A stretch of 64,000 nt of DNA from the NCBI GenBank assembly GCA_964016885.1, contig OZ024742.1, forward strand, positions 317,254,001 through 317,318,000, written 5' to 3'. The notes beneath the pieces were generated by a model that saw only the letters and a list, made by a program, of their open reading frames with translations, did not search any database and was not told the DNA's origin. The DNA is from Eledone cirrhosa (lineage: Eukaryota). Position numbers and translations under genes: made by a program. This document shows positions 4,861 to 48,274 of this stretch, piece by piece. Numbering within the stretch: position 1 is the first letter of the stretch; the number at the start of each line of letters is the position of its first letter.

Positions 4861-5036
4861 GATTCCTGTTGATAAGCACAGAAGATTTGGATATTTCACT
4901 TTTTATTTCAATTCCATTTCGATTCTCTTTATTTTTCAATTCATGTACCATCGTTGCCCAACATATTTGGGTTTCGAAGTTCAAATTCATCTACGGAGCG
5001 GGTTTGGATTTTGAAATTTAAATTTGTCCAGGAATC
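4861..5036 (+). ncRNA. Hammerhead copy with GAAA changed to CCAA (predicted inactive)
   Basis: Same sequence as 3737-3912, offset by +1124. Confidence 0.65.
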
Positions 5037-6753: not shown

Positions 6754-6771
6754 CTGTCTTTGTTTTTGGTT

Positions 6772-10786: not shown

Positions 10787-13500
<2,714 letters not shown>

Positions 13501-13949: not shown

Positions 13950-14346
<397 letters not shown>

Positions 14347-23535: not shown

Positions 23536-23658
23536 AAATATCATCAATAATCTATGATGCTAAGAAAAAGGAAATGCGTCATAATCATCAGCCACACCAG
23601 GCCCCTGGTTTAGACCCGGTCGGATGTATGTGAATGTACTGATATACAAGGAAATAAC

Positions 23659-24309
23659 AATAATTGTTTCTACTTTTGGCACAAGGCCAGCAAATTACCC
23701 AGTACATTACTGGTACTTTATTTTAGCGACCCCGTAAGGATGAAAGGAAAAGTTAACCTCGGCGGGATTTGAACACAGACCGTAAAGGGACGTAACTATG
23801 CTGGAAAGCATGGCGTCCGACTCTCTACTGATACTGCCAATCCACCAAATAACAATAATAATGATAGTTTCTGATATAGGCACAAGCCTAGCAATTAGAG
23901 AGGGGTAAATCGATTAAATCGACCCTAGAGTGTTACTGGTGTTTTATTTATTGACCCTCTAAAGATGAAAGGCAAATCTTACCTCGGCGGAATTTGAACC
24001 GAGAACGTAAAGGGACATAACTCTCTGCCGCGAAGCGGTGTGTCCGATACTCTACCGATTCTGCCAATCTACCGCCTTCATAATAATAATAATTGTTTAC
24101 ACTATAGGCACAAGGCCAGCAATATGTAGGGAGAGGAAAGCCGATTAAATCGACCCTAGTTTATTACTGGTGCTTTATTTATCGATTCCGTGAGGATGAA
24201 GCGCAAAGCTAACATCGGCAGAATTTGAACTCAGATCGTAAAGGGATGTAACCCTATGCCGCTAAGCATGGTGTCCGATGCTCAACCGATTCTGCCAATC
24301 CAACACCCT
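23659..24309 (-). mobile_element. Three head-to-tail SINE family 1 copies separated by (AAT)n
   Basis: Copies at ~23659-23848, ~23862-24077 and ~24090-24309, each with ggcacaag(g)cc(a)gcaa, ctggt(a/g)ctttattt and ctcggcgg(g/a)atttgaac. Confidence 0.85.
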
Positions 24310-24364
24310 AATAATAATAATAACAATTATTATTATTATTATTATTATTATTATCATTATTATT
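24310..24364. repeat. (AAT)n to (TTA)n polarity-switch microsatellite
   Basis: aataataataataacaattattattattatt... Confidence 0.9.
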
Positions 24365-24579
24365 GGTTGGTGAAGCCACGCTTCTTATCGCCTCCAGTCT
24401 TTTTCAACGTTTTACCTCTTTTTCAACCGTTCTAAACCTTTTATTCAAGTTTTAAATTTGATAAAAGTTTAGAAGAAGTGACCCACCTAATACAGGGGTT
24501 CACTAGTAAATAATACGGTACCCCTTTACGGGGTGTCGTATTCGTATTTGTGTAAAAATATTTTTTGAAAAATTTCAAC

Positions 24580-26462
24580 ATGGATAACACAAAAAAGAGA
24601 GAGAGCGCTGTCAGACAACACAGAGAGAGGGAGACTTTATCAGCATGTCAACAAGACAGCGTTCCAGCGGAGGTAAATATAAACGAAAATATTACAAAGG
24701 AAAAAAAGATTGTTACTGATTTAAAATTAACAAATATTTCTAACACAAACAACACCAACAATAACACCAACAACATCACCAACAACAACACCAAAAATAA
24801 CAGCGGTAAAGTCGAGAACGACAATAACAATGACAATAACAACAGCCACAACAACAATAATAACAACAGCCACAATAACAGTAACAGCGGCAACAGTATC
24901 AACGAAAACAACACCAACAACTGTACCAGCGAAAAGAACAACAATGACACCGATACCTGTAATAGCGACCTCAGCACCACCAGTAAGACCAGTAGCGGCA
25001 GCAATAGTGGTGCTGCTGAAAAAGGGTCACGTCTTTTGCAGGTGTCGCCCGAAATATCGAGACAGTGTTAGTCACAGAGGAGGAGATGGCAGTCGCAAGG
25101 GCCATGGTGACAAGAAGCGCAAATAGAGTTTCCCTGAAACCTCCACCCGATTTTTTCAATGACCAGCAGCTACGAACGGTGACTTACCGCACCGTAAGCA
25201 AAATCTCGCATCGAGTGGAGAGAGCCACGGAGGCTCAAATCCCAAAGGCCTTGGGGTGCGTCTGGGCACGCAAAACCCACATCACCCGAGGCAGAAAGTA
25301 CGCCACAGTAGACGTACTTTTCGCCACCCCCCAGGAAGCAAAGTCTCACTTTTTGGAAACCCTAAAGAGTGAGGAGTTAGTCTTGGTGCCCTCCTACTGC
25401 GGGCAGAAAATTGTGAGGGTCAAAGTGACCCAGGTCCCACCAGACGTGCCCATACCTTGGCTGGCCGCGTCTGTCCTTGCTGGAATTGAGAACAAGGCGA
25501 CCATGCTGCAAGTAAAAAAAATAGGGAGAGAGAACTGGTCAGGTATAGGCATGCAAATGCTTATACAAACTGACCAGAAATGTATCGAGGCTATCCCCGA
25601 TATCATAGACTTTGAGGAAGGACTCCAACTCCCTATAAGTGTAGAAGGAAGACGGCCAAAATGTTATCTCTGTGGGTCGAAAGGTCACGTCAGGGCCTTT
25701 TGCCCGCAGAAGACACCGAAGAGGGCCCCTCTCCTTCCAATACCTGGTCCGCTGCTACCAAGAGCAGGACAGGCAACAAACGAAGAAGCCCCTTCCACGG
25801 TGAGTATGAGGGCAACGTCCGTAGCACCCGTACCAAGGCCACGGATAACTAAAGCAGCATCATCAGTAGCGGCAACACCAATAGCTACATTTGAAATAGC
25901 TACACCAGCAACAACATTCCCGAAGAGGGCTCCACTACCACCACCAACAGCCGTGGAGCACATACCCCTCCCAGACGCCACAGAATCCGACATGGAGTTT
26001 GAGGCGGGAGTGACGTGGCAAACAGTCTGCCACAAAAAAGAAAAAAGAAAAAAACCCTTAGATTCACCCTCCAAAAGCGAAGGCATAAAAAGAGGAGTAA
26101 AGGCAGCAAGGAAACTTGCAGCAACACCACCACAAACACCAACAACGCAAACACAACAAGATACACACACCAAACAGCAACAAGAAGAAAACGGCAACAA
26201 AATCCCCCCTCCCCCCAAAATGTACACAGCCATAAACATAGCAAAAAAAGAACTCATAAAATATATAAAGCAGCACACAGACATCACGGAAAAAAATGAC
26301 TACACCCCACCAACACCAAGAACTCTCCTGACAAACATAAGCATCATCGAAATCTCAATAGAACAATACAAACCTTTAAAACAAAAATTCCCCAACGCAG
26401 TTGGAGACTTCAGAGGGACGGTTACCAAGAGGATATACACTGACATCCTCTTGGAAACACCC
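24580..26462 (+). pseudogene. ORF1 of element A (Asn-rich N-terminus, zinc knuckle)
   Basis: ORFs 24565-25071 and 25065-26498 with CYLCGSKGHVRAFC. Fused at ~26462 to ORF2 residues LTGAVVNNRW. Confidence 0.85.
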
Positions 26463-28552
26463 ATGTTGACGGGAGCGGTCGTCAACAACAGGTGGTAGTT
26501 CGCCCTGAAAAGGGCAATTAAAGTAGAGTCGATTAGGTTTAGCAAATGAGTAGTGATAGAGGAAAATAGAGTAGAGGGAGAGCTAGTCAGAAAGCTAGAA
26601 GAGGCGTTTAGGACAGGCATCGCAACCGACGTGCTTGCGGTGAGATTGGCACTCGACCAATTCTTCAACGCAAAACACGAAGGCTGCGTTGTCAGAACTA
26701 GAGCGCGTGCTCTGAAACACGAGGGAACAAAAGCCGTCCAATGGGCCCGGGTGGCAGAGGCGCGACGTGGCAATAAAGCTACAATTCGGTCTTTGTCTGA
26801 CCAAAACGGGTGCGTGATGCTCGAACCCGAGCGGATGTGTGAAGCTTTTCAGCAGCACTTTGCTGAACTGTTCGGGAGCGGCGGCGGCCCGGATCGGGAC
26901 ATGGACTTCAGTGCATACCTCGACGGACTGCCTCGGCTCTCGACAACCGCAGCACAGTGTTGCGAAAAGCCAGGCGTTGGATCGCAGCAATGTACAGCGA
27001 CATCTGCTCAGTTGTGAGGGTGAACGGTCACCTGTCGCAGCCGTTCAGCATCATGCGCTCAGTCCGCCAGGGTTGTCCCCTCTCGTCCCTCTTGTACGTA
27101 TTGGCTCTCGAGCCGTTACTGCACAAACTGGGGGCGATGAGGGGCGTCCAACGCGAACTAGGATGCGGGAAATCCGAGTCGGCTTACGCTGACGACGTCG
27201 CCGTGGTGGTGTCGAGCACCAGACACGTCCAGATGCTCGGCACCGCTCTTAAGGAATACGAAACGGTGACAGGAGCAAAGATAAACCAGGAAAAGTCGGT
27301 GGGCTTGCAGCTAGGCACCTGGAGAGGCAAGTCCATGCCGTCCGACAGCGTCGTGGAGCGTTGGACGGACGGACCGGTTAAATTGCTCGGGGTCTGGTTC
27401 GGACCGGACCTCCAGATGGAGAAAAACTGGAACGAGGTGACGAGCAGGGTGGCCTCCGTCACCCAGAAATGGGCTGAGAGGAAGCTGTACCTGAAAGGCC
27501 GGGCGGAAGTGGCGAATGCGTACATCGCATCCGTCATCTGCTACCGCCTCACCGTCGTCTCTTGCTCCAGCCCAACTCTCACCAAAATGGAGCGCCTCCT
27601 CTTCCGCTTTTTGTGGAAGGGACGCGCTCCCATGGTCAGACGATCCATCTGCTGTCAACACCCGTTGCGTGGAGGACTGGGCATGCCATGGCTGATGATG
27701 CGCAAACATGCGCTGCGGCTGCGACATCTCTGGTGCTTCCTTGATGGTGAACGGGTGTGGTCGCCGTTCGCCAGGCACATTTTCCCACAGCTCGTCTCCT
27801 TGACGGAGCTGCAGTCCTGGGGCAGAAAAAGACCGAGGGATAGCGCTTGGAAACTGGAATGTCTCCAGGCGCTCACTGCCCTCTCCCAGTTGGGCACCAG
27901 TATCGGTGCAACATCTACCTCGGCGTTCTATAGAGGACTAGTGGAGGGGAAGAGCAACGACGTTCTCGGAGAGATCCTGGGCGTCGAAGAAGATCAGCTG
28001 TTTGCTCTCTTCCGGAGAACTTTCAGCCCGGGGCCTATGGATAACTTCCAAAAATCCCTGGCCTGGCAGTGCTACCGGGGAGCGCTGCCGGTTCGAGATA
28101 AGCTCTACAGGCACGGAAGTGCCGTCTGCCGAGCCTGTCCGAGGTGCGCGCATAACGACGAAACCGTTGTGCACGCACTCGTTCAGTGCCTGAGCATTGC
28201 TGACTTGTGGAGCTATGTCGAACAGTTGCTGTCACGTGTGGGACTGATCCGGTTGTCGACTGAGTCCATTGTGCCGATGGTCTCGCCGTCTTCCTTTGAG
28301 GAGGAAGGGCCGGCGGTTTTCATCTGCCTGGTGGCCATGGCGAAAGAGATTGTGTGGGGGACAAGGTTAAAAGGATTAAAGACAAACACTTTCCTCTTCG
28401 GCGAATCCCTGATTAACTTTTTCAAGTTTCACTTGAAGAGGAAAATCAGGGTGGAGAGGCAAGTACTGCTTTCTAGCAAGTTTGTTGAAAGGTGGGTGAA
28501 TGTAGCGAGAATGGTCCGAGTGAAAGGGACCACTCTGAATATACGTCTGTAG
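26463..28552 (+). pseudogene. ORF2 remnant of element A (partial RT plus zinc-binding C-terminus)
   Basis: SVRQGCPLSSLLY, AYADDV, VKLLGVWF, GGLG, CPRCAHNDETVVHALVQC. Deletion at ~26970 joins CCEKP to WIAAM. Confidence 0.9.
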
Positions 28553-28811
28553 TTTGAGAGATGGAAAAATTGAGAGAGGGCGCTTGTCCTGGTAGTCAGG
28601 GTGGCCGTGGTCTTTTGTGTGGTTTTCCCTATTGGGGAATTTTTCATTGTATCAATTTTCATTTTATTGTTTATGTATATATATGTTTTATGTCTTTTTT
28701 CTTTTCTTATATGAATAATAAAAATATTTACACGCACAAAACCCACATCGTACCGTCCTGTTCCGTCTGTGATGTTTTTCTTGATGTCAGCCCTTGTAGC
28801 CAATAAAGAAA

Positions 28812-28812
<1 letters not shown>

Positions 28813-28870
<58 letters not shown>
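28813..28870. repeat. (ATT)n: tail of A and target of B
   Basis: Pure ATT run between the 3' end of A and the 5' end of B. Confidence 0.95.
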
Positions 28871-29078
28871 GGCGACCTACGTAGGAAATCGTATTATCGT
28901 GAGCTCCGCAAAGGTTTGTTATTTCCGTTTGTTTAAAAATTGCCATTTATGGAAAATTTTATTGTAAACTGTTTATAAGCACACATACATTGTTTTCCGA
29001 AAAGGACACCCAGAAAGATTGGGGCCTTGTGCCCAAAATTTTAACTTTTATTATTATCCAAAAATTTCTTTGAAAAGA

Positions 29079-31048
29079 ATGGCTAATTCCCCTCTGCACG
29101 AAGCAGCTGAAAGCCTTCCTCACAAAATAACACCTCACACCGACACCACCATTGTAAATGTTACTACGTTTGCCAACACAAAAAAAAATATAAGCAGTAG
29201 CAATATTTTAAATTTGTCTCAGGCAGACATTCATTTCCCGCCATTACCAATGACTGCAGGTGTTAAACCCTCCACCGCCACCACCACCGCGACAACCACC
29301 ACCCCCACCACCACCGCGACAACAGAAACAAAAGAAGAAAAAAATAAATTAACTCGTGATGTCGAAATGAAATCAAGCAAAATCGACTCTTCCGCACCAA
29401 AGACGACTGACGTCACCACCACCACAACTGAAACTAAAATTAAGATTAACACAAATAACGATAGCAACAACAACAACAATGACATTATAAAACCGACCCT
29501 CAGTTTCGCCATAGTAGCAAAACAATTTGAAGCATTCACGGTAACACAAGACGATTTAGAAAATGCCAAACAAATGGTAAAGAAAAATGGGTACAGGGTC
29601 AGCCCCCCCCCCACCCACCTAATAAAATGGAGCATCGGCGCCTATGCACCGTGTCGTATAGAACAATAAATGTAAAATCGCGCCGAGTGGAACGGGCATC
29701 CGAGTCCCGAATCCAAAAAGCTTTGGGACATGTGTGGGCAAGGAAAACCCACATCAGACGTGGGCAAAAGTATGGAACCGTGGATGTGTTCTTTGAAACA
29801 CCAGAGGAGGCTAGAGAACACTCCATGGCCCCATTAAAAAGTGACGACTTCACACTCGTCCCAAGCTATTGTGGCCAGAGACTCGTAAAGATCAGGGTGA
29901 CCCACGTTCCACCGGCCATCGAAATTCCCTGGCTAATAGCGGCTGTCCTCGCCGGCATCGAAGCCAACACGAAAATAATAGCAATAGCAAAAGAAAAGCA
30001 GGAAAACTGATACGGATCTGGGATGGAGCTCCTAATCCAAGCGGACCAAAAAAGCATTGAGGAGATCCCAGAGGTAATAGACCTCACTGACGGCAGCCAC
30101 CTCACGGTAATTGTCGAGGGCAGAAGACCTAGGTGTGTCGTTTGTGGTGAAGGAACCCACCTAAGGGCTTTCTGCCCTCAGGCTAAAAGGTTGAGGCCAC
30201 CTCTCCTACCCACCCCAGTGACACAACCATCAACACCACCAGTAGCAGAGATGGCAGCAACAACTGTAGCAGCAACAACAGAAGCAACTATAACAGCAAC
30301 AACCCCAGCAACAGTAGCAGAACCAACACCACCACCACCCAACGCTTCAGAACTAGCACCAGCGCCTACACCATCCACCACACCACAACCAAAACTAACG
30401 GCTGTGGATGATTTTCCACTCCCCGGCCTATCACAACTGGAGACAGATTGTGACGACGAGGAGTGGGAAACGATATCCGGAAAAAAAAAAAGAAACCGAA
30501 AAAGAAAAAATTCTCTTCCTTCCCCCTCCAAAAACAAAATACAGAGGGAAACAAATAAACTAAGAAACAAAAAAGTTAGGACAGATATGCCACCATCCAC
30601 ACCAGCATCACCAACCCCATCAACCCAAACACCAACACCATCACCATCATTAACTCCAACACCACCATCACCTACACCACAAAAGTCACCAAAATGCGAA
30701 ACAGAAACAAACCCACAACAAACGCAAACAAAACAAAACAACCAAAACGATACACACTACACAGCATTAAATTTGAACAACAAGCAATTATTACACTACA
30801 TCCAACACAACACCAGCATCACAGAAAAAGACTACACAACAACCCCAAAATTCACACCACCTCCACACATACAAATCACTCGCATCACACAGAAAACGTA
30901 CATGACACTAAAACAAAAATTCCCCAAAGACATCGGAGACTTCCGACAAGCACTCTCCAGGAGGATTTATAAGGACATCCTTCCTGAGGAGGCCACAAGC
31001 AGTGAAAAGGATGGAAAAACCGTCCTGCCCCTACGAGAAGTAAGGTAA
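29079..31048 (+). pseudogene. ORF1 of element B
   Basis: Frameshift near the C-run at ~29610 and TGA at 30008-30010 where copy D has W. Contains CVVCGEGTHLRAFC and a Pro/Thr-rich linker. Ends PLREVR*. Confidence 0.85.
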
Positions 31049-31082
31049 GTGGTCTTTCCCATCTGTTCCACTCCTTTTCAAC

Positions 31083-34000
31083 ATGACCTCACTCAGAATA
31101 GGCAGCATAAATGCGCGTGGCTTGGGGTCGTCATGGAAGCAGGGCCACCTGCTCAACGACCTCAGGTCACTAAACATAGATGTAGTGGCCATCAGCGAGA
31201 CCAGAATCTCCGAAGCACAGGCTTTCGCACCGATCTTCGGCGGCTACGATGTGTACGCATCTCCCAGCCGTCCGGGATCGGGAGGGGGGAGTTGCTGTGC
31301 TTTTTCGGAGAGGTTTGGATCTTGCCATACGGGCCATCTTCCTGGACCCAGAAGGTAAGTTGGTGGTGCTGGACGTGACCAGCGGAGACGGGCAAGCTTT
31401 CAGGCTAGTGGCCGTCTATGCCCCGACAGGAGCAGGGCGGCCTGATTTCTTCCGGCGTCTGGAGACCTTTCTTGGAATGTCCCGCTCTTTAGTGTTAGTG
31501 GGCGACTGGAACGGGATCTTAGATGCACGCTGGGATTGTGTGGGATTAGTGGATAGGGAAGGAGGGTGCAAGAGTCTCACCAAACTGCTCAGACGTTTTG
31601 AACTGTCTGACAGGTACCGAATGGATTTCCCGAATGTACCAATGTGGACTTGGACAAATCGCATAGGGTCATCCAGATCATATCTAGATAGAGTATTTTG
31701 TAGGGAAATAGATAGGTCTAGCATAGGCTGTCCACAATTCAAGATAGTCAGCTACACGGACCACAAATTCGTGATCTGTGTGCTTGACTTAGATAGGCTT
31801 CATAGACGAGGACCCGGCTACTGGAAGCTAAACGCGTCCTTACCAGCGCGCAAGGCCTACAGAGACCGGATTAGCGAACTAGTTAAGCGGGCGTTGACGG
31901 GGGCCATCGTCAACAACAAGTGGTGGTTTGCTCTGAAAAGAGCAATTAGAATAGAGTCCATTAGGTTTAGTAAGACTTTAGCAATAGAGAAAAATAGAGC
32001 AGAGGGAGAACTAGTTAGAAAATTAGATGAGGCGCTTAGCAAAGGCATCGCGACCGACGTACTTGCGGCGAAATTGGCCCTTGACCAATTCTTCAATGCA
32101 ACTGTTCGGGGGCAGTGGCGGGCCGGATCGAAGGATGGACTTTAGTGTCTACCTCGGCCACTGAGGCGGAGTGTTGCGAAAAGCCGATAACAACCGCTGA
32201 AGTACGGGATGCAATGACTAGTTGCACAAGGGGTAAATCGCCTGGTTTGGATGGTCTGCCCTATGAACTTTACGTACAAATGCCAAACTTGTTCGGAGGC
32301 CTCTTGGCGGACGTCTACTGCAACTGGCAACAGAACGGGAGAATTCCCAGCTCTGTGAGCCGAGGAGCGGTGGCTCTGCTGAGAAAGGATCCGAACAAGG
32401 GGGATAACATAGATAATTTTAGGCCCATAACTCTGCTAAACACAGAGTTCAAGATTTTGGCCAAGGTGCTAGCAAAGAGGTTGGCGCTTGTCGCTGGTGG
32501 TCTGGTGGGAGAGGCACAGACATGCGCCATTCCCAACAGATCCATCCACGACAACCTCCACCTCATGCGATACATCGTAGAGAGGGTAGCTAGGGAACCT
32601 GGCAAGGGTGGGTCTTTGATGAATTTAGATCAATCGAAAGCCTTCGATAGGGTCGACCATCGTTACCTAGCGGCAGTCCTGAGGGCGGCTGGCTTTGGGC
32701 CCGTCTTCAGAGGCTGGATCGCTGCCATGCACAGCGACATCTGCTCTGTAGTGAGAGTGAACGGTCACCTTTCGGAACCGTTCAACATCATGCGCTCGGT
32801 CCGCCAAGGATGTCCCCTCTCGTCCCTATTGTACGTATTGACTCTCGAGCCATTACTGCACAAACTGGAGACGTTGAGGGGGGTCCCGCGCGAACTAGGA
32901 TGCGGAAGATCCGTGTCAGCATATGCCGACGATGTCACCGTAGTGGTGTCGAACGCCAAACACATAGAGGCGATCGGCACTACACTAACAGAATACGAAG
33001 CGGTGACAGGAGCAATGATCAACCAGGAAAAGTCAGTGGGCCTGCAGCTCGGCACCTGGAGAGGCAGGTCCATGCCGTCCAACAGCGTCGTCGGGCGCTG
33101 GACGGACGGACCGGTTAAATTGCTAGGGGTCTGGTTCGGTCCAGACCTCCAGACGGACAAAAACTGGGACGAGGTGACCAGAAGGGTGGCTTCTCTCACC
33201 CAGAAATGGGCCGAGAGGAAGCTATCCCTGAAAGGTCGAACGGAGGTGGCGAATGCGTACATCGCATCCGTCATCTACTACCGCCTGACCGTCGTACTTT
33301 GTCCTAAGCCCCGCCTGACTGCGCTGGAGCGTTTGCTGTTTCGCTTCTTGTGGAAGGGACGCGCTCCGATGGTCAGGCGGTCCATCTGCTGTCAACACCC
33401 GCTACGTAGAGGGCTGGGCATGCCGTGGCTGATGATGCGCAGACACGCGCTCAGGCTACGACATCTCCACCTCTTCCTCGACGGTGATCAGGTGTGGTCG
33501 CCGTTTGCTAGACACGTTTTTCCCCAGCTCGTCTCCTTGACGGAGCTGCAGTCCTGGGTCAAGCGAAGACCGAGAGGGAGCGCTTGGAGACTGGAATGTC
33601 TTCAGGCGCTCACAGCCCTCGACCAATCGGGCAATGTGATCGGTGGAAACTCCACCTTGGCGTTCTATAGGGGATTAGTGGAGGGGAAGAGCGACGACGT
33701 ACTTGGAGAAACTCTAGGCGTCGACGAAAATCAACTAGCCAATCTCTTCGGAAGGACCTATAGGGCCGGGGCCTATGGACAACTTCCAGAAATCCCTGGC
33801 CTGGCAGTGCTACCGAGGAGCTTTGTCAGTTTGGGATAAACTCTACAGGCATGGAGGTGCCGTCAGCCGGGCATGTCCGAGATGCGCGCAGGGCGACGAA
33901 ACCGTCCTGCACGCACTCGTCCAGTGTCCGAGCATTGCTGACTTGTGGGTTTATGTCGAACACCTGCTGTCACGTGTAGGACGGATCCGGCTATCAGCTG

Positions 34001-34290
34001 AGTCCATCGTGAGGATTGCCCCGCCCTCCTCCTTTAGCCGGGAAGGGCAGGCAGTTTTTATCTGTCTGGTGGCCATGGCGAAAGAGATAGTATGGTGGAC
34101 ACGTTTGAAAGGGCTGAAGACGAGCACTTACCTCTTCGGTGATGCCCTGATTAACTTTTTCAAATTTCATTTGAAAAGGAAAATCAGGGTAGAGAGGGAA
34201 GTGCACTCTTCCCAGAATTTTGTTGAAAGATGGGTGAGAGAAGCAAGTATGGCCCGAATGAATGGGCCTTCTCTGAGTATGTGTCAGTAA
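31083..34290 (+). pseudogene. ORF2 of element B (APE endonuclease, RT, CCHC)
   Basis: SINARGL, AISET, VYAP, GDWN, YLDRV, TDHK; KSPGLDGL, FRPITLLN, LDQSKAFDRV, QGCPLS, YADD. Frameshifts at ~31290 and ~33770 and deletions near 32100-32160. Confidence 0.93.
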
Positions 34291-34580
34291 ATTTAAGGTG
34301 GAAAACTGGGAGAGGGCACTTGCCCTGGTGGTCAGGGCCACTGTGGTCTTTTAATGGGCTTTCTCCACAAATGTCCCTCGGAAGTCTCCCCCCTATTGGG
34401 GAATTTTTCTTTGTTATTTTATTTCAACCTCCGTTTTTTTTACACGCAGAAATGCCCATTTGTACCGTCCTGTATTGTCCTGTACTGTCCTTAATGTCTA
34501 CTTTATGTAAACCCTTGTGGTTAATAAAGAAAACATTATTATTATTATTATTATTTTATTATTATTTAATTATTATTATT

Positions 34581-35442
34581 AGGGGTAAATTGAGCAGAAG
34601 CAACGGAATCCAGGTACCAACAGGTGAGATGATAAAGGAAATTGACACTGAAGAAGGATACAAATATTTAGGTGTTCTGGAGGCAGATGACATCAAGAAC
34701 AAAAATATGAAGGAATTGATAAGATCTGAGTATATTAGGAGAGTAAGGAGCGTATTAAAGTCACATCTGAACAGTAGGAATGCCATAAGTGCAGTAAATT
34801 CCTGAGCTGTGTCTATTATTAGGTACAGTGCGGGAATTCTGAAATGGAATGTTGCTGAACAAAAAGAAATGGATAGGAAGACTAGGAAACTATTGACTAG
34901 CTACAACATGTTCCACAAGAGGAGTGATGTCGATAGACTCTACTTAAAGAGATCTGAAGGTGGAAGGGGTCTTATCAGCATAGAGGACTGTGTTTAGATG
35001 GAGAAAAACAACCTGCACAAATACGTGACCGACAGTAGGGAGCCAATGCTCAGAATTGTACTGAAGGAGAAGACAATAGACCAGGGGATGTCCAAGGAGG
35101 AAATAACAACAAGGAGGAAGACCAACCTTCATAAAAAATCCCTTCATAGTACCTTCTTTGAGAAAACTGAATTTAGAGATCCACAGACATGGAACTGGTT
35201 AAAAAGAGGAGACCTTAAAAAGGCTACAGAAGGAAAGCTAATGGCTGCGCAATAGCAGGCACTCAAAGGATGGTTAAAGAAATTTAGTCCAGCCCCGCTT
35301 TTTGGAACACTTCAAAAGGCATGCTTGCTGGGAACAGCAAGAACCCTCCGATACGTACTGAATATCTGAGGCTGCAGGTAGCGGCTTGATATTCATTTCA
35401 ACAAACTTTCCAGTTAAATAACATGAATGACTGAGATTCAAA
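34581..35442 (+). mobile_element. 5'-truncated R4/Dong (Rex6-like) RLE-type LINE fragment
   Basis: YKYLGVLE..SEYIRRVRSVLKSHLNSRNAISAVN, MDRKTRKLL, SDVDRLYLKRSEGGRGL and terminal LQKACLLGTARTLRYVL. In-frame stops, an internal deletion at ~35265 and an (AAT)n tail. Confidence 0.75.
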
Positions 35443-35465
35443 GAATAATAATAATAATAATAATG

Positions 35466-35493
<28 letters not shown>
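35443..35493. repeat. (AAT)n shared by the 3' ends of the Dong-like fragment and element C
   Basis: Visible directly in the sequence. Confidence 0.95.
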
Positions 35494-35496
<3 letters not shown>

Positions 35497-35746
35497 TTTC
35501 TTTATTAACCACAAGGGTTTACATAAAGTAGACATTAAGGACAGTGCAGGACAATACAGTACGGTACAAATGGGCATTTCTGCGTGTAAAAAAACAAAAA
35601 CAGAGGATGTAACAAAAAAATAACAGTGAAAAATTCCCCAATAGAGGGGGGACTTCGGAGGGACATTTGTGGAGAAAGCCCAGTAAAAGGCCAGAGTGAC
35701 CCTGACCACCAAGGCAAGTGCCCTCTCCCAGTTTTCCACCTTTAAT

Positions 35747-38700
35747 TTACAGATATATACTCAGAGTAGGCCCATTCACTCGGGTCATTCTTGCTTCTCT
35801 CACCCATCTTTCAACAAAATGCTGGGAAGAGAGCACTTCCCTCTCTACTCTGATTTTCCTTTTCAAATGAAATTTGAAAAAGTCAATCAGGGCATCACCG
35901 AAGAGGTAAGTGCTCGTCTTCAGCCCTTTCAAACGTGTCCACCATACTATCTCTTTCGCCATGGTCACCAGACAGATACAAACTTCCTGCCTTTCCGGGC
36001 TAAAGGAGGAGGGCGCGGCAATCCTCACGATGGACTCAGATGATAGCCGGATCCGTCCTACACGCGACAGCAGGTGTTCGACATAAACCCACAAGTCAGC
36101 AATACTCGGACACTGGACGAGTGCGTGCAGGACGGTTTCGTCGCCCTGCACGCATCTCAGACATGCCCGGCTGACGGAACCTCCATACCTGTAGAGTTTA
36201 TCCCGAACTGGCAAGGCTCCTCGGTAGCACTACCAGGACAGAGATTTCTGGAAGTTGTCCATAGGCCCCGGCCCGAAAGTTCTTCCGTAGAGATTGGCTA
36301 GTTGATTTTCGTCGACGCCTAGAGTTTCTCCAAGTACGTCGTCGCTCTTCCCCTCCACTAATCCTCTATAGAACGCCGAGGTGGAGTTTCCACCGATCAC
36401 ATTGCCCGATTGGTCGAGGGCTGTAAGCGCCTGAAGACATTCCAGTCTCCAAAAGCTCCCTCTCGGTCTTCCCTTGACCCAGCACTGCAGCTCCGTCAAG
36501 GAAACGAGCTCGGGAAATACGTGTCTAGCAAACGGCGACCACACCTGATCACCGTCGAGGAAGAGGTGGAGATGTCGTAGCCTGAGCGCGTGTCTGCTCA
36601 TCATCAGCCACGGCATGCCCAGCCCTCTACGTAGCGGGTGTTGACAACAGATGGACCGCCTGACCATCGGAGCGCGTCCCTTCCACAAAAAGCGAAAGAG
36701 CAAACGCTCCAGCGCAGTCAGGCGGGGCTTAGGACAAGGTACGACGGTCAGGCGGTAGCAGATGACAGACGCGATGTACGCGTTAGCCACCTCCGCGCGA
36801 CCTTTCAGGGATAACTTCCTTACCGCCCATTTCTGGGTGAGAGAAGTGCCCTGCTCGTCACCTCGTCCCAGTTTTTGTCCGTCTAGAAGTCCTGACCGAA
36901 CCAGACCCCTAGCAATTGAACCGGTCCGTCCGTCCAGCGTCCGACGACACTGTTGGACGGCATGGACCTGCCTCTCCAGGTGCCGAGCTGCAGGCCCACT
37001 GACTTTTCCTGGTTGATCATTGCTCCTGTCACCGCTTCGTATTCTCTTAGTGTGGTGCCGATCGCCTCGATGTGTTTGGCGTTCGACACCACTACGGTGA
37101 CATCGTCCGCATATGCTGACACGGATCTTCCGCATCCTAGTTCGCGCGGGACCCCCCTCAACGTCTCCAGTTTGTGCAGTAATGGCTCGAGTGTCAATAC
37201 GTACAAGAGGGACAAGAGGGGACATCCTTGGCAGACCGAGGGCATGATGTTGAACGGTTCCGACAGGTGACCGTTCACTCTCACCACAGAGCAGATGTCG
37301 CTGTGCATGGCAGCGATCCAGCCTCTGAGGACGGGCCCAAAGCCAGCCGCCGTCAGGACTGCCGCGAGGTAACGATGGTCGACCCTATCGAAAGCTTTCG
37401 ACTGATCTTAATTGATCAAGGACCCACCCGTGCCAGGTTCCCTAGCTACCCTCTCTACGATGTATCGCATGAGGTGGAGTGGTCGTGGATGGATCTGTCG
37501 GGAATAGCGCATGTCTGCGCCTCTCCCACCAGACCACCAACGACAAGCACCAACCTCTTTGCTAGCACCTTGGCCAAAATCTTGAACTCTGTGTTTAGCA
37601 GAATTATGCGCCGGAAATTATCTATGTTATCCCAATTGTTCGGATCCTTTCTCAGCAGTGCCACCGCTCATCGGCTCACAGAACTGGGAATTCTTCCGTT
37701 CTGTTGCCAGTTGCAGTAGACGTCCGCCAAGAGGCCTCCGAACAAGTCTGTCATTTGTACGTAAAGTTCATAGGGCAGACCATCCAAACCAGGCGATTTA
37801 CCCCTTGTGCAGCCATTCATTGCCTCCCTTACTTCAGCGGCTGTTATCGGCTTTTCGCAACAATCCGCCTCAGTGGCCGAGAGCCGCGGCAGTCCGTCGA
37901 GGTAGACACTAAAGACCATCCCTCAACCCGGCCCACCGCTGCCCCCGAACAGCTGAGCGAAGTGTCGCTGAAAAGCTTCACACTTTTGCCCGGGATCGAG
38001 TAGCATGCGCCCGTCGTGGTCCACCAAAGACCGGATCGTGGCTCTGTTGCCACGACGCGCCTCCGCCACTCGGGCCCATTGAACGTGTCTGAGAGCACGC
38101 ACCCTTGCTCTGACAACGCAGCCTTCGTGCTTTGCATTGAAGAATTGGTCAAGGGCCAATTTCGCCGCAAGCACGTCGATCGCAATGGCTTTGCTAAGCG
38201 CCTCGTCTAATTTTCTAACTAGTTCTCCCTCTGCTCTATTTTTCTCTATTGCTAAAGCCTCACCAAACCTAATCGATTCTATTCTAATCGCTCTTTTCAG
38301 AGCAAACCACCACTTGTTGTTGACGATGGCCACCGTCAACGCCCGCTTAACTAGTTCGCTAATCCGGTCTCTGTAGGCCTTGCGCGCTGGTAAGGACGCG
38401 TTTAGCTTCCAGTAGCCGGGTCCTCGTCTATGAAGCCTATCTAAGTCAAGCACACAGATCACGAATTTGTGGTCCGTGTAGCTGACTATCTTGAATTGTG
38501 GACAGCCTATGCTAGACCTATCTATTTCCCTACAAAATACTCTATCTAGATATGATCTGGATGACCCTATGCGATTTGTCCAAGTCCACATTGGCACATT
38601 CGGGAAATCCAATCGGTACCTGTCAGACAGTTCAAAACGCCTGAACAGGTTGGTGAGGCTCTTGCACCCTCCACCCCTATCCGCTAATCCCACACAGTCC

Positions 38701-39151
38701 CAGCGTGCATCTAAGATCCCGTTCCAGTCGCCCACTAACACTAAAGAGCGGGACGTTCAAAGAAAGTTCTCCAGACGCCGGAAGAAATCAGGCCGCCCTG
38801 CTCCTGTCGGGGCATAGACGGCCACTAGCCTGAAAGCTTGCCCGTCTCCGCTGGTCACGTCCAGCACCACCAACTTACCTTCTGGGTCCAGGAAGATGGC
38901 CCGTATGGCAAGATCCAAACCTCTCCGAAAAAGCACAGCAACTCCCCCCCCCCCGATCCCGGACGGCTGGGAGATGCGTACACATCGTAGCCGCCGAAGA
39001 TCGGTGCGAAAGCCTGTGCTTCGGAGATTCTGGTCTCGCTGATGGCCACTACATCTATGTTTAGTGACCTGAGGTCGTTGAGCAGGTGGCCCTGTTTCCA
39101 TGACGACCCCAAGCCACGCGCCTTTATGCTGACTATTCTGAGTGAGGTCAT
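35747..39151 (-). pseudogene. ORF2 of element C (APE, RT, CCHC)
   Basis: Fragmented ORFs with VYAP, GDWN, TDHK, KSPGLDGL, YADD and CLRCVQGDETVLHALVQC. Confidence 0.9.
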
Positions 39152-39185
39152 GTTGAAAAGGAGTGGAAAAGATGGGAAAGACCAT

Positions 39186-41258
39186 TTACCTTACTTCTCG
39201 TAGAGGAGGGATGGTTTTTACATCCCTTTTCACTTGATCGTCTGGTGAAGGGACCGTTGAATCGTCCCTTCGGCTGGTTGTTGGCTCTTCTATGAGTATG
39301 TCCGAATATACTCTTCGATTGAGAGTCCCTCCTAGGTCTCTGAAATCACCAACTGCGTTGGAGAATTTCGTTTTAATGTTTGTGTATTGTTTCTGTGCTA
39401 TTTTTAGCAGTCTTATGTTAGTTGGCGTTTTGATTGGTGCTGGTATTATGTAGTCGTGTTGTGAAATGTCTGTGTGTTCAATTATGTAAGTCATTAGTTT
39501 CTTGTTGTGTGTATTTATTGCTGTGCATTTGTTCTTCTGGGGGTGGGGGGTGGTTCTGCTATTTTCTTGTCGTTGTTGCTGGGTGTGTGTGTTTTGTTGT
39601 TGTGTTTGCGATGTTGGTGCTTGTGGTGGTGGCGTTGAAGGTGTTGTTGTTGTTGGCGGTGGAGTTTTCGCCGGTGGTGATGGTGGTGCTAGTGTGGGTG
39701 GTGATGGTGTTGGTGGTGTTGCTGCTGTGAGTCTCTTTGCAGTAGCCTTTACCCTTTTTTCATTTCTTTCCTCCCTTTTCGAAGGCGACGATGCGCTGCT
39801 TCTGCGTTTGTGACTTCTTACGACCATTTGCCATCCCTCTCCCACCTCACACTCCATGTCTGATTCTGTGAGGTCGGGGAGGGGTACCAGCTCCACTCTT
39901 TCACTTGTTGTTGTTGGTGATGTTTGCACTGGAGTCTCTGTTGCAGCTGCATTTGGTATTGCTGTTGTTGTTGTTAATACTTCCACTGCTGCTGTTGTTT
40001 TTGATTTCTGTGGCGTGGGTATGGGTGCCACAGACCTATCGTTCCTGGTTGCCGCTTGTCCTGTTGCTGGTAGCCGTGGAGCCGGTTTCGAAAGGAGGAG
40101 GGTTTTCTCCTTTCTCAGGGTCTTCTCGTTGCAGAAGGCCCTGAGGTGAGTCTTCGATCCACAGCGAAAGCATTTCGGGCGTTTGCCCTCAACACTTATG
40201 GGCAATTGAGTGCCGTTATCGAAGTCTATCACATCCGGGATAGCTTCGATGCACTCCTGGTTGGTTTGGATTAACATCTCAATGGAGGTGCCGACCCAAT
40301 CTTCTCTTACTTTTTTCTGTACTTGCAGTACAGTTGTTTTGTCCTCGATTCCGACGAGGACAGACGCGGCCAGCCAAGAAGGGGCCATCCCAGGGGGGAC
40401 GTGGGTCAGTTTGACCCTCACAATTTTTTGCCCGCAATAGGAGGGCACCAACACCATTTCCTCGCTCCTTAGGGTCACTAAGGATTGATCCTTTGCCTCC
40501 TGGGGTGTGGAAAAAAGTACGTTACGGTGGCATATTTTTTGCCTCGGGTGATGTACGTTTTCCGCTGCCACACAGACCCCAAGGCTTTTTGTATTTGGGC
40601 CTCTGTGGCTCTTTCCACCCTACGGGATTTTGTACTTACTGTACGGTACGTGACCGTACAGTGCTCTTGGGTTTTGAAAAATCTTTCCGCTGCCTTGCAG
40701 ATTGCTCGGTGTCCGTTCTTTGTCACCATCTTCTTCGCTTCCTCTAATTCCTCATTTGTTATGAGGATTGTTTCCAAGTTTTTCGCAATACCTGCAAATG
40801 AGATTGGTTTTTCTCTGCTGTTGTTGTTGTCGTCAGAGCTGCTGGTACTTTTGTTGTTGCTGCAGGTACTACGACTACTGCCTCCGCGGCTGTTGCTGTG
40901 GTTGTTGTTGGTGTTGCTGCTGATAATGCTGTTGTTGTTTATGCTGCTGGTGATGCTGTTGCGGCTGCTACTGTTGTTTTCATTGTCACTGTTGCTGTTG
41001 TTATTACGGCTGCTGCTATTATTCCTGAGGTCAGACGAATGAACTGGGTTTTCGTATTTCCCGCACACCTGTTTCGTCGCTGTCGTCCTCGTCGTGAAGA
41101 AACCTTGCACGCTTTGCACGAGACTTTTCTTTTCTTTCGTCGCTTGCGAAAGAGAAGGGAGGGAGAGAGACAATCTTCTCTCTGCTGTAGTGACGATTGA
41201 GGAAGAAGAAGACGGAATGAGTGGGAGTGACCTCAGAAAATTCTTTTTCGTAGCCATG
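39186..41258 (-). pseudogene. ORF1 of element C
   Basis: Asn/Ser-rich N-terminus, RVERATEAQIQKALG, CCHC knuckle, frameshift at ~40520. Ends PLREVR*. Confidence 0.85.
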
Positions 41259-41472
41259 TTGTTTTTTTGTTTAAAATAAATATTGGGCACAAAACCCCAA
41301 TAAGCAGTTATTTAACCCCGAAGGGCCAAATAAGGGGCAGAAAGACCCCTCTCACGAGGAGGAGGGTGTTTTTGTCTACAAGTTGGTTAAAGTTTTAAAC
41401 AATTTACAATTGTTATAGCGGTCAAAATTTACAATACCTTACAGAGCCGAGCCTCCGTCAACCATGGCATTC

Positions 41473-41501
<29 letters not shown>

Positions 41502-41503
<2 letters not shown>

Positions 41504-44500
41504 CTTTCTTTATTAACCACAATGGTTTACATAAATTAGACATTAAGGACAGTACAGGACAATACAGGACGGTACAAATGGGCATTTCTGCGTGTAAAAA
41601 AAACAAAAAACAGAGGATTTAACAAAAAAAGAAACAATGAAAAATTTCCCAATAGGGGGGAGACTTCCGAGGGCCATCGTGGAGAAAGCCCATTAAAAAA
41701 GCCACGGTGATCCCGACCACCAGGGCAAGTGCCCTCTCCCAATTTTCCACCTTCAATTTACAGGCACATACTCAGAGTAGGCCCATTCACACGAGCCATT
41801 CTTGCCTCTCTCAGCCATCTTTCAACAAAATGCTGGGAAGAGAGCACTTCCCTCTCTACCCTGATTTTCCTTTTCAAATGAAATTTTAAAATGTTAATCA
41901 GGGCATCACCGAAGAGGTAAGTGCCCTTTCAAACGCGTCCACCATACCATCTCTTTCGCCATGGCCACCAGACAGATAAAAATTGCTTGCCCTCACGGTG
42001 GACTCAGCTGGTGGCTGGATCCGTCCTACACGCGACAGCAGGTGTTCGACATAAATCCACAAGTCAGCAATGCTCGGAAACTGGACGAGTGCGTGCAGGA
42101 CGGGTTCGTCGCCCTGCGCGCATCTCGAACATGCCCGGCTGACGGCACCTCCATGCCTGTAGATTTTATCCCGAACTGGCAAAGCTCCTCCGTAGCACTG
42201 CCAGGCCAGGGATTTCTGGAAGTTGTCCATAGGCCCCGGCTCGAAAGTTCTTCCGAAGAAATTGGCTAGTTGATTTTCGTCGACGCCTAGAGTTTCCCCA
42301 AATACGTCGTCGCTCTTCCCCTCCACTAATCCTCTATAGAACGCCAAGGTCGAGTTTCCCCCGATCACATTGCCCGATTGGTCGAGGGCAGTGAGCGCCT
42401 GAAGACATTCCAGTCTCCAAAAGCTCCCTCTCGGTCTTCGCTTGACCCAGGACAGCAGTTCCGTCAAGGAGACGAGCTGGGGAAAGACGTGTCTAGCAAA
42501 GGCGGCCACACCTAATCACCTTCGAGGAAGAGATGGAATTGTCGTAGCCTGAGCGCCTGTCTGCGTATCATCAGCTACGACATGCGCACCCTCCCCGTAG
42601 CGGGTGTTGGCAGCAGATGGACCGCCTGACCATCGGAGCGCGTCCCTTCCACAAAAGGCGAAACAGCAAACGCTCCAGCGCAGTCAAGCGAGGCTTAGGA
42701 CAAGGTACAACGGTCAGGCGGTAGTAGATGACGGACGCGATGTACGCGTTAGCCTCCTCCGCTCGACCTTTCAAGTATAGCTTCCTCTCCGCCAAATTCT
42801 GGGTGAGAGAATCCACCCTGCTCGTCACCTCGTCCCAGTTTTTGTCCGTCTGGAGGTCCGGGCCGAACCAGACCCCTAGCAATTTAACCGGTCCGTCCGT
42901 CCAGCGCCCGATAACGCTGTTGGACGGCATGGACCTGCCTCTCCAGGTGCCGAGCTGCAGGCCCACCGACTTTTCCTGGTTGATCATTGCTCCTGTCACC
43001 GCTTCGTATTCTCTTAGTGTAGTGCCGATCGCCTCGATGTGTTTGGCGTTCGACACCATTACGTTGACATCGTCCGCATATGCTGACACGGATCTTCCGC
43101 ATCCTAGTTCGCGCGGGACCCCCCTCAACGTCTACAGTTTGTGCAGTAATGGCTCGAGAGTCAATATGTACAAGAGGGACGAGAGGGGACATCCTTGGCG
43201 GACCGAGCGCATGATGTTGAACGGTTCAGAAAGGTGACCGTTCACTCTCACCACTGAGCAGGTGTCGCTGTGCATGGCAGCGATCCAGCCTCTGAAGACG
43301 GGCCCAAAGCCAGCCACCCTCAGTACTGCCGCCAGATAACGATGGTCGAACCCATCGAAAGCTTTCGACTGATCTAAATTGATCAAGGACCCACCCGTGC
43401 CAGGTTCCCTAGCTATCCTCTCTACGATGTATCGCATGAGGTGTAGGTTGACGTGGATGCGCCAACCTCGTTGCTAGCACCTTGGCCAAAATCTTGAACT
43501 CTGTGTTTAGCAGAGTTATGGGCCTTTAGCAGTATTGGTTATAGATGTTATCGCCACTTTAGCGGGGTGGTAGAATCAGTGGTCGTTAGTTGCCAGTGTG
43601 GTAAGTGATAGTATCCTTGTTGGATTATCTTGTTGACATAGACGTGAGGGAAGGTCCCTCGATCTATTTACCATCTATTTACAATATTCCTTTCGTCAGG
43701 TCACCAATTCCAGCAGCATGGATTAAAGATGTTATTGAGATGCAAGTGACATAATAACAGCAGAAATTAGAGATGAAATGTTTGTTTATTTATATGGTTG
43801 AAGTTACAGATACAAAGAGGTTACAATGGGAAATGTGCCATTGCGCCGTTAAGCCGGCGAGGCTAGGGGTGCAATATCTCACTCCTACATTATGCGTGTT
43901 GCTGGCTCGAAGTTTCTGGTACAAGCTAAAGATTCTTCAAATCTTCGCGGGGAGATTCTTCCTCAGGGCGCGTAGGGATACATCCTCTTCTACTGGCGCT
44001 GATTGGCTGAACTGAGCCAAATCACGCACAGAGAATGTATGTGAGCCCGCAGAATGTAGGTCACTACAGGCCTGAAAGTATCTATGTTATCCCCATTGTT
44101 CGGATCTTTTCTCAGCAGCGCCACCGCTCCTTTGCTCACAGAGCTGGGAATTCTCCCGTTCTGTTGCCAGTTGCAGTAGACGTCCGCCAAGAGGCCTCCG
44201 AACAAGTCTGGCATCTGTACGTAAAGTTCATAGGGCAGACCATCCAAACCAGGCGATTTACCCCTTGTGCAGCCAGTCATTGTCTCCCGTATTTCAGCTG
44301 CTGTTATCGGCTTTTCGCAACAATCCGCCTCAGTGACCGAGAGCCGCGGCAGTCCGTCGAGGTAGACACTAAAGTCCATCCCCCGATCCGGCCCGCCGCT
44401 TCCACAGAACAGCTGAGCGAAGTGTCGCTGAAAAGCTTCACACATTTGCCCGGCATCGAGTAGCATGCGTCCGTCGTGGTCCACCAAAGATCGGATCGTG

Positions 44501-46342
44501 GCTTTGTTGCCACGACGCGCTTCCGCCACTCGGGCCCATTGAACGGCTTTCGTCCCCTCGTGTCTGAGAGCACGCACCCTAGCTTTGACAACGCAGCCTT
44601 CTTCGTAATTTGCATTGAAGAATTGGTCAAGGGCCAATTTCGCCGCAAGTACGTCGGTCGCGATGCCTTTGCTAAGCGCCTCGTCTAATTTTCTAACTAA
44701 TTCTCCCTCTGCTCTATTTTTCTCTATTGCTAAAGCCATACTAAACCTAATGGACTCTATCCTAATCGCTCTTTTCAGAGCAAACCACCACTTGTTGTTG
44801 ACGATGGCCCCGGTCAACGCCCGCTTAATTAGTTCGCTAATCCAGTCTCTGTAAGCCTTGCGCGCAGGTAAGGACGCGTTTAGCTTCCAGTAGCCGGGTC
44901 CTCGTCTATGAAGCCTATCTAAGTCAAGCACACAGATCACGAATTTGGTGAGTCACTGGGGTGGGTAAGAGAGGTGGCCTCAACTTTTTAGCCTGCGGAC
45001 AGAAAGCCTTTAGGTGGGTTCTTTCACCACAAATGACACATCTAGGCCTTCTACTCTCAACGATTACGGTGAGGTGGCTGCCGTCAGTGAGGTCTATCGC
45101 CTCTGGAATTTCCTAAATGTTTTTTGTCCGCTTGGATCAGGAGTTCCATCCCAGATCCGTACCAGTTCTCCTGCTTTTCTTTTGTTACCTCAATTATTTT
45201 CGTGTTGGCCTCGATGCCGGCGAGGACGACAGCCATTAGCCAGGGAATTTCGATGGCCGGTGGTACGTGGGTTACCCTTATTTTTACGAGTCTCTGAACA
45301 CAATAGCTTGGGACGAGTGTGAAATCGTCACTTCTTAATGGGGCCATGGAGTGCTCTCTGGCTTCCTGTGGGGTTCCAAAGAACGCGTCCACGGTACCAT
45401 ATTTCTGCCCACGTCTGATGTGGGGTTTTTTCGCCCACACATGTCCCAAAGCTTTTTGTATCTGGGACTCGGATGCCCGTTCCACTCAGCATGATTTTGT
45501 ATTTATCGTCCGATATGATACGGTGCATAGGCGCCGATGCTCCATTTTATTAGATGGGGGAGGGGCTGACCCTGTACCCATCTTTTTTTACCATTCTCTT
45601 GGCTTCATTTACTTCCTCCTGGCTTACCTCGATTGTTTCGCTTTTCTTGGCTGCTTTGGCAAACGACACATTTTGTTTTGCGCTGGTGTTGATGTTGTTA
45701 TTCTCATTGTTGTTGTTGTTGCTGTTGTTGTTATTGTTATTTTTGTTATTGTTATTTTTAGTTTCAGTTGTGGTGGTGGTGTCAGTGGTGTTCGGCGTGG
45801 AAGAGTCGATTCTGGGTGAATCCATTTCGATGTCACGAGATAATAATTTATTTTTGGGGGTTTCTGTTGTCGCTGTGGTGGTGGTGGTATCAGTGGTGTC
45901 CGTTATTATTTTTGACATTATGGTGGTGGGGATGGCGGCTTTAACACCTGCAGTTAATTGTAATGGCGGGAAATCCATGTCTTTATGCGGCAATTCTAAA
46001 TAATTCAAACTGCTATTAATTATATTTTCAGTGTTGGGAACCGTAGAAAAGCTTACAATAGTGTTGGTGTTGGTGGTGGTGGGGGAGAGGGTGTTGGTCT
46101 GTTAAAACCAGTAAATTTGTCGTCCATGTCTTTTTTTTCAAAGAAATATTTTGTTTTATAAATAAAAAGTTAAATTTTGGGGCTCAAGGACCCAATATTT
46201 TTTGTGTCGTTTACAAAAAGCAATATATGTGAACTTATAAACACTTAATAACAAAAATTTTCCGTAACTGACAATTTGAAACAACTGAAAACAACAAACC
46301 TTTGCGGAGCTGACGATAATACGATTTCCTACGTAGGTCGCC
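41502..46342 (-). mobile_element. Tx1-like retrotransposon D, internally deleted, with nested insertion
   Basis: Same 5' end as B (GGCGACCTACGTAGGAAATCGTATTATCG) and B-type ORF1. A deletion at ~44945 joins ORF1 (PTPVT) to the end of the endonuclease (KFVICVLD). RT with YADD. 3'UTR followed by (AAT)n at 41473-41501. Confidence 0.92.
43525..44068 (-). mobile_element. 544-bp insertion in the RT of D, probable solo LTR
   Basis: Interrupts FRP|ITLLN. GGCC is duplicated at 43521-43524 and 44069-44072. The minus strand starts TGTAGTG, ends TGCTAAA (one change from TGCTACA) and contains AATAAA. Confidence 0.7.
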
Positions 46343-46346
46343 AATA

Positions 46347-46407
<61 letters not shown>
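46343..46407. repeat. (AAT)n: SINE 3' tail and target of D
   Basis: The run lies between the 5' end of D and the 3' end (tgtttctactttggcacaagg) of a minus-strand SINE. Confidence 0.9.
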
Positions 46408-46408
<1 letters not shown>

Positions 46409-46835
46409 TGTTTCTACTTTGGCACAAGGCCAGCAATTACCCAGTACATTACTGGTACTTTATTTTATCGACCCCGTAAGGATGAAAGGCAAAGTTGACC
46501 TCGGCGGGATTAACTTTGCCTAGTATTTACTTTAGGCACAAGGCCAGCAATTTGAAGTGGAGGGGAAAGTCGATTAAATCGACCCAGTCTATTACTGGTG
46601 CTTTATTTTATCGACCCCGTAAAATAATGGTTTCTTATAAAGGCACAAGGCCAGCAATTTTGGGGGAGGGGAAAGTCGATTAAATCCACCCCAGTGCGTG
46701 ACTGGTACTTTATTTTATCGACCCCATAAGGATGAAAGGCAAAGTTAACCTCGGCGGGATTTGAACTCAGATCATAAAAGGCCGTAACTCCATACTGCAA
46801 AGCATCACGTCCGACCTCTACCGATACTGTCAATC
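46407..46835 (-). mobile_element. Three stacked SINE family 1 copies (two 5'-truncated)
   Basis: ggcacaaggccagcaa occurs near 46422, 46535 and 46642. The last copy extends through box B to the tRNA-like head. Confidence 0.85.
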
Positions 46836-47253
46836 AGATATTAATATGTGGAATATCTTAGAATAAGAAAAACAAAAAAAAACACAATGGTTTCATTAAT
46901 CATTTCTACGATGTTGAAGTGGAAGAAGCGGAAGGCAAGAAGCAGGGGTGTGGTGAAAAAGATAATGACATCTTTAGCAACACGCAACCCTCCTTTTTTC
47001 ATCTATTTTCCAACACACCACGCATCTTCTTTATCAGCTCTACATCTATTTAACCACATTATGACAACAGCTTATAAACCCTTTTCTTTTCGAAAATATA
47101 ATTAAAAATACGATCTTTACGTCAACAAAAACCACCAAAAGAAAATAGTTATGAAGAAGGATCTAGCGAGAATTGAATAATTGTCAAGCGATGAATGAGG
47201 TAAACTAGAGCTGCTGTAGAGGGTGGAGTGGGTGTGGGGGAAGAAAGGAGAGA

Positions 47254-48210: not shown

Positions 48211-48274
48211 AGAGAAGAATAAAAAATAAATAACTAATAGAGGATGGAAGCTGAAAAAATGGAAAATACTAAAG

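Follow-up and report, generated by a model that had tools for sequence, protein, structure and literature searches.

In a 64,000-nucleotide stretch of the Eledone cirrhosa genome (assembly GCA_964016885.1, contig OZ024742.1, positions 317,254,001 to 317,318,000 of the forward strand; hereafter the window, with coordinates counted from its first letter), we analysed a 23.2-kb nest of transposable elements in which four long interspersed nuclear elements (LINEs A–D), assigned to the L1/Tx1 type, each begin at the edge of an (ATT)n tract. The preference for (ATT)n is strong at this locus, and specificity of the whole family for this repeat is likely. The best reading of the nest, which we hold with moderate confidence, is that an octopod L1/Tx1-type lineage prefers (ATT)n tracts for its insertion. 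The boundaries of the nest, 23653-46836 (23,184 bases), were resolved from a self-comparison and from print-outs of the junctions, and 23,183 of these bases are accounted for by assigned parts, which include the four LINEs, six short interspersed nuclear elements (SINEs S1–S6) and one fragment of an R4/Dong-type LINE. The first-pass annotation had given the same number, order and coordinates of elements, and these hold. Its statement that the nest is made entirely of these 11 elements needs correction, because D also holds a 543-bp insert (43526-44068, − strand) that begins with TGTAG, is accompanied by a 5-bp duplication and, judging by its sequence, is probably solo-LTR-like (LTR, long terminal repeat).

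The junctions carry the main evidence. The 5' ends of A–D are all intact, and 4/4 read ...ATTATT|G after an (ATT)10-22 tract and in one phase, a coincidence that simple arithmetic puts at 1 in 27 if the phase were random. Three different 5' untranslated regions (UTRs) occur among the four copies: the first 30 nt are common to B and D and so define the 5' boundary, while A and C each differ. All four 3' ends have the form AATAAA + 6 nt + (ATT)n, with poly(A) at 0/4 of them. Outside the nest, 12 nt of ATT repeat lie upstream of 2 out of 81,646 strand-positions (2 x 40,823), compared with 179 of 2 x 64,000 for the whole window. Given the background outside the nest, the junction pattern is not due to chance, although the locus was selected for this very pattern. 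The bodies of A–D never interrupt the body of another element. Tracts next to the LINEs are 10-22 units long vs 1-6 units in the seven SINE tails that lack contact with a LINE, which suggests a net gain per insertion through duplication, templating or slippage.

The arrangement of the LINEs is as follows. On the + strand, A (24365-28813) is preceded by a tract at 24310-24364 that switches polarity, (AAT)4-AAC-A from 24310 being followed by (ATT)13 at 24326-24364. An (ATT)19 tract (28814-28870, +) separates A from B (28871-34534, +), and an imperfect (ATT)~16 tract (34535-34581, +) lies 3' of B. On the − strand, D (41503-46342) and C (35495-41472) are separated by (ATT)10 (41473-41502, −), and the (ATT)22 tract at 46343-46408 (−) is both the tail of S4 and the 5' flank of D. 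An (AAT)17 tract (35444-35494) is common to the 3' ends of the Dong-type fragment on the + strand and of C on the − strand. Thus, B follows the 3' tract of A, C that of D, and D that of S4, as the first-pass annotation had described; its further remark that an ATT/AAT run marks almost every junction is correct for the sites which it listed, but where S4, S5 and S6 meet there is either no run or one of just two units.

Judging by their sequence, we classify A–D as L1/Tx1-type non-LTR retrotransposons with a predicted APE architecture. B is near full length, with frameshifts and small deletions, and contains the APE endonuclease domain PF03372 (E 1.8e-8, above cutoff) together with RVT_1 (E 1.3e-29) and zf-RVT (E 7e-8), which bears out the earlier assignment to an APE-type family. 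PF03372 is weak in C (E 7e-4, below cutoff); the endonuclease region is deleted in A and mostly deleted in D, so that only B and C retain sequence there. A has its own 5' UTR and an open reading frame 1 (ORF1) with a weak match to zf-CCHC (E 0.005, below cutoff), the domain being above cutoff in the homologous ORF1 of a sister lineage described below. A separate ORF1 with a CCHC knuckle is typical of Tx1, and the label Tx1 is one that we assume from architecture. A homolog search with ORF1 gave no match. When ORF2 was mapped on the residues of P0140, a full-length relative from the same clade (1e-50 to human L1 ORF2p vs 4e-22 to R2), A was found to lack residues 1-241 and 412-585, the latter covering the reverse transcriptase (RT) core, and D residues 1-198, while B and C cover most or all of ORF2, with breaks. 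C spans the entire ORF2 and has the third type of 5' UTR; D has a B-type 5' end and lacks the 3' half of ORF1. All four LINEs are broken and none is intact.

The closest named protein to these LINEs comes from Argonauta hians (69%). In a 43-row quick tree, which contains no named Tx1 reference (Tx1L, Keno, Kibi, Koshi), A and B cluster with this protein and five further ones (SH-aLRT 99), and their clade has as its sister (98) a clade of 18 rows, among them a cuttlefish protein. This placement points to a probable octopod host. Scans of metagenome and viral collections turned up no octopod loci of the A–D lineage. It is very likely that A–D belong to the annotated L1-Tx1 class of Octopus vulgaris, which comprises 80 families and 56 Mb, with 421 recent copies in 13 families (PMC13282606). 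The papers cited here by PMC number were available to us in part, and what we take from them holds for those parts.

Since the identities of the RT-to-3' and ORF1 regions differ among the copies, A–D represent separate insertions. From RT to the 3' end, B, C and D are 92.5-94.8% identical to each other and 81-83% identical to A; in ORF1, identity is 76% between A and C and 87.5% between B and D, with 63-66% in the cross pairs. This pattern rules out D-C as a simple duplicate of the A-B pair, and C is a mosaic of an A-like ORF1 joined to a B-like ORF2. One shared ORF2 type occurs together with two types of ORF1 and three of 5' UTR (24365-26500, 28871-31050, 39186-41472 and 44949-46342), a set of combinations that suggests swapping of 5' modules. 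Stretch 28850-35464 was compared with four of the 17 listed sequence runs, from four studies, a comparison that does not cover the ATT junctions: many related copies were present in 4/4 runs, the deletion of B at 32101 was absent from the other copies there, and the extra base near 33758 was absent from many.

The junctions are what is observed of the favoured (ATT)n preference, and the steps proposed here are modelled on established target-primed reverse transcription. The APE endonuclease would nick at a T-A step in the (AAT)n strand. With a poly(A) signal only 6 nt from the end of the element, the RNA would run on into (AUU)n, anneal to the nicked strand and prime reverse transcription, so that the insertion would presumably be made without an A-tail. 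On the ATT strand, a second cut, again at a T-A step, would duplicate whole units and keep the phase constant. Each insertion would split one tract into two, turning a SINE tail, probably that of S4, into a growing landing pad on which other SINEs could also settle, as could a TAA-type Dong element in the opposite orientation. Since an insertion within a tract leaves repeats on both sides, an RNA-encoded tail and a split target look alike, and regeneration of the target by the tails, as the first-pass annotation proposed, looks the same as a microsatellite target that was simply split and duplicated. The simplest history would begin with one tract, probably the tail of S4, which would have received D, C and S1–S3 in ATT polarity; the Dong-type element would have entered it in AAT polarity. 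A and B lie in another run, opposite in polarity, at the 5' junction of the Dong-type element. Decay is greater in A and D than in B and C, which agrees with the order A before B and D before C without proving it.

A scan of genome contigs gave 44 loci; animal-like contigs within one bacterial bin (G001) account for 38 of these and reveal a related lineage with a different insertion pattern. These Tx1-type relatives are 47-49% alike to B, many with open ORFs, and form head-to-tail arrays with a period of ~6.4-6.9 kb on at least 16 contigs (loci L001-L037, L043 and L045-L054). Their linkers are short, and two poly(A) signals have an additional 240-290 nt between them. When the octopod clade (3 rows) is compared with the G001-type relatives, the endonuclease shows a hairpin-loop region of different length and sequence. 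This region may have a role in target choice, and the difference would permit different cutting preferences in the two lineages.

Several points weigh against a preference for (ATT)n as a family trait. The evidence comes from one locus selected for its appearance, with 4/4 copies there, and the + strand ATT run that carries A and B does not agree in polarity with the remainder of the nest. In the sister lineage, (ATT)3 is found at 0/31 of the 3' ends and ATT upstream of 0/4 array-first copies; ATT tracts do occur on its contigs. SINEs outside the nest with the same tail polarity have ATT upstream in 0/3 cases. Of the (TTA)n-specific family proposed in the first-pass annotation, a preference at this locus is supported by four of four junctions, with three 5' UTRs and one phase, while the sister lineage, which stacks without ATT, and the SINEs count against a pure account by a (TTA)n endonuclease. 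Since the sister lineage stacks without ATT, stacking is a trait shared across the broader lineage, for which no microsatellite is required.

The same observation keeps alive an alternative in which the target is set mainly by the RNA, which we regard as unlikely. Transcripts would carry ~15-20 nt of the downstream flank of the donor, annealing to a loosely chosen nick; a unique flank would then produce tandem arrays, as in the sister lineage, and a microsatellite flank would lead to any such tract, as in the octopod one. In agreement with this, 29 of 31 distinct 3' ends of the sister lineage directly precede another copy (26 full-length, 3 truncated) and the remaining two are followed by flank; these ends were counted by a strict motif, which misses subfamilies with a variant one. 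The linkers are ~17 nt long and vary among subfamilies. One two-copy array has an 18-nt repeat at its start, middle and end (first vs last 16/18 alike), A–D lack poly(A), and a solitary SINE outside the nest (6567-6766) has a 19-nt target duplication that starts with ATTATT and overlaps and matches its own tail. However, a near-exact repeat occurs at only one of the four array starts examined, being partial or absent at the others, and arrays can be explained by two insertions into one site with unequal exchange (PMC5932611). The G001 bin is also enriched for tandem DNA, since it holds an unrelated 8.16-kb tandem duplication (L056 and L057 on G001:C16; 99.6% identical), and of the three truncated copies, two lie side by side and are identical. 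Moreover, swapping the endonucleases of SART1 and TRAS1 swapped their targets (PMC7265360). The 8.16-kb ATT-spaced array itself was considered as a Tx1 array and rejected: it is a segmental duplication containing Dong-type pieces, LTR-type pieces and, in each unit, an ATT tract. At another locus (L038, 3036-3199 and 9961-10137), a distant Tx1-type copy (36% to B) lies between matches to U1 snRNA; the A-tail of this copy is adjacent to the 3' part of a U1 gene, which suggests a U1-targeting family.

A broader proposal, and quite an improbable one in our estimation, is that cephalopod Tx1-type LINEs inherit their target via the RNA. The poly(A) signal placed at the end would leave in the transcript a copy of the donor flank that guides priming; one lineage would thereby form single-site arrays of intact copies, while the octopod lineage, once in (ATT)n, would have become microsatellite-targeting without a new endonuclease, and an abundant octopus SINE may draw its 3' end from the same LINE group.

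It is similarly doubtful that the nest is a local hot spot, i.e., that a weak AT-rich or TpA preference acting genome-wide led to a rare pile-up in a permissive region, with the tracts lengthened later by slippage. The locus was picked by eye, other element types (Dong-type, LTR-like insert) landed in it too, and SINEs make up 11.6% of the O. vulgaris genome, for which hot spots of transposable elements are reported (PMC13282606); the SINEs here are mostly short-tailed. A weak preference fits poorly with four exact tract-edge junctions in one phase within 23 kb of mostly non-ATT sequence and with no LINE body interrupted. That elements from elsewhere were joined, through a chimeric assembly or by ectopic recombination at (ATT)n tracts, is very improbable: every join lies in simple repeat, no piece of the compared runs spans 28850-35464 and a search for a duplication bracketing the whole nest found none (best match 6 nt), but a join via ATT tracts still presupposes ATT at every 5' end, the very thing observed, and copies that differ by 5-19% in RT and carry distinct deletions are neither collapsed nor duplicated reads.

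The Dong-type fragment (34582-35443, + strand) is 5'-truncated and has an internal deletion; its sequence appears to fit the R4/Dong clade, a restriction-like endonuclease class. P0182, the best of its long relatives (48% alike over 235 aa), has a single ORF without APE and is nearer to R2 (5e-21) than to L1 (1e-10). PF03372 is absent from all five long relatives scanned, and the relatives carry a C-terminal CCHC and a restriction-like motif; reading this motif as a restriction-like endonuclease, and the name Dong, are our assumptions. A search of the Atlas with this piece gave no named match. The fragment has (AAT)17 at its 3' side, while its 5' side adjoins ATT, of opposite polarity to its own (AAT)n end; the (AAT)4 at 24310 may be its former 5' flank. 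The ATT run before the fragment was also considered as part of its reading frame, and this was rejected since 0/26 relatives listed have Ile just before the RGK motif.

All six SINEs lie on the − strand, and they are not (ATT)n-specific. At the left end of the nest, S1 (23653-23846) has a short imperfect ATT tail, the tail of S2 (23847-24080) adjoins the head of S1, and the (ATT)4 tail of S3 (24082-24309) adjoins S2, another (ATT)4 lying 5' of S3. At the right end, S4 (46409-46519) is 5'-truncated, S5 (46520-46622) is 5'-truncated and has no ATT tail, and S6 (46623-46836) has an (ATT)2 tail and a unique 5' flank. They may be tRNA-derived SINEs of the OR2/CORE type, a group with a tRNA-derived head and a CORE domain; Rfam gave no tRNA match at gathering score on these copies. 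A SINE 3' end common with A–D was rejected, since in comparison with the 3' UTR of A 15-124 of 300 shuffles scored as high, and the terminal match to B–D was no better. The 3' end of S6 (46629-46700, −) matches the terminal motif of the sister lineage (L017, 4383-4418) in 30/35 columns, with 0/300 shuffles scoring as high in all three subfamilies; S1, S3 and S5 gave 0-7/300 and S2 20-73/300, in a set of 60 shuffle comparisons that is uncorrected. As a lead, this match possibly points to a SINE partner or a shared signal. Another branch (L001) has a similar motif at its 3' end, and an 11-nt core is also found in the 5' UTR of B near 29023.

The principle of repeat targeting with stacking at a duplicated target is already established; what look new for the microsatellite-targeting Tx1-type group are the repeat unit and the host. 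Among Tx1 families, Kibi targets (TC)n, Koshi (TTC)n and crocodilian families (TTCC)n/(TTTC)n, and the figure and supplement of the source may list more targets (PMC4494074). These families are similar to A–D in being APE-type, Tx1-like, two-ORF LINEs that insert in a microsatellite (PMC4494074, PMC3812793), but they differ in their units and their vertebrate hosts, A–D being inserted in (ATT)n in an octopod. By target, A–D fall outside Kibi and Koshi, all their flanks being (ATT)n; by analogy, they would work in the same way with another repeat unit. A target-specific Tx1 family is defined by one sequence type in >20% of flanks across genomic copies (PMC4494074); A–D have it in 4/4, all from one selected locus. 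A review names ACAY, AC, TC, TTC and TAA as targets, with TAA for Dong only (PMC3812793). Dong/R4 shares the TAA microsatellite with A–D, and the fragment in the nest has an (AAT)n end; however, its relatives have one ORF, no APE and a C-terminal CCHC with restriction-like motif, while A–D are APE-type and of opposite strand polarity. The review places Dong among APE types, in contrast to the lack of an APE domain in relatives of the fragment.

Tandems of R1, jockey, P and hobo arise by double insertion (PMC5932611). As proposed for the nest, target preference and target duplication give head-to-tail copies with the target kept between them, but in the nest the target is a microsatellite common to unrelated elements, and the copies belong to different subfamilies and lie in both orientations. 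SART1 and TRAS1 are also APE LINEs that insert in a simple repeat in fixed phase, SART1 at a T-A step, and the two use opposite strands of one repeat (PMC7265360); they are telomeric members of the R1 clade with poly(A) tails, which A–D lack. For L1-Tx1 of O. vulgaris, no target preference is reported in the accessible parts of PMC13282606 and one supplement, nor are target data given in the available parts of PMC8967140, PMC9115989, PMC4758252, PMC3747384 and PMC8869645. A literature search found no (ATT)n/(TAA)n Tx1 and no cephalopod Tx1 arrays; most subscription papers and Repbase lay outside it, and the family may therefore have a catalogue entry already.

Should the preference extend to the whole genome, the microsatellite-targeting Tx1-type elements would gain a new target unit as well as a new phylum, and part of the growth of LINE/SINE nests and of (ATT)n tracts in octopus genomes would be accounted for. 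Two related cephalopod lineages with different insertion patterns offer a natural comparison for deciding if it is the endonuclease or the 3' end of the RNA that sets the target, a question that also bears on site-directed insertion tools.

Other features of the window lie outside the nest. Rfam matches to tRNA just above gathering score occur at 10875-10945 (−) and 14242-14312 (+). At ~3200-4930, an identical 21-nt tandem is found four times at 562-bp spacing, which points to a tandem repeat of 562 bp. On the right side of the nest, 47250-56100 contains long trinucleotide tracts and repeated minisatellite-like blocks.

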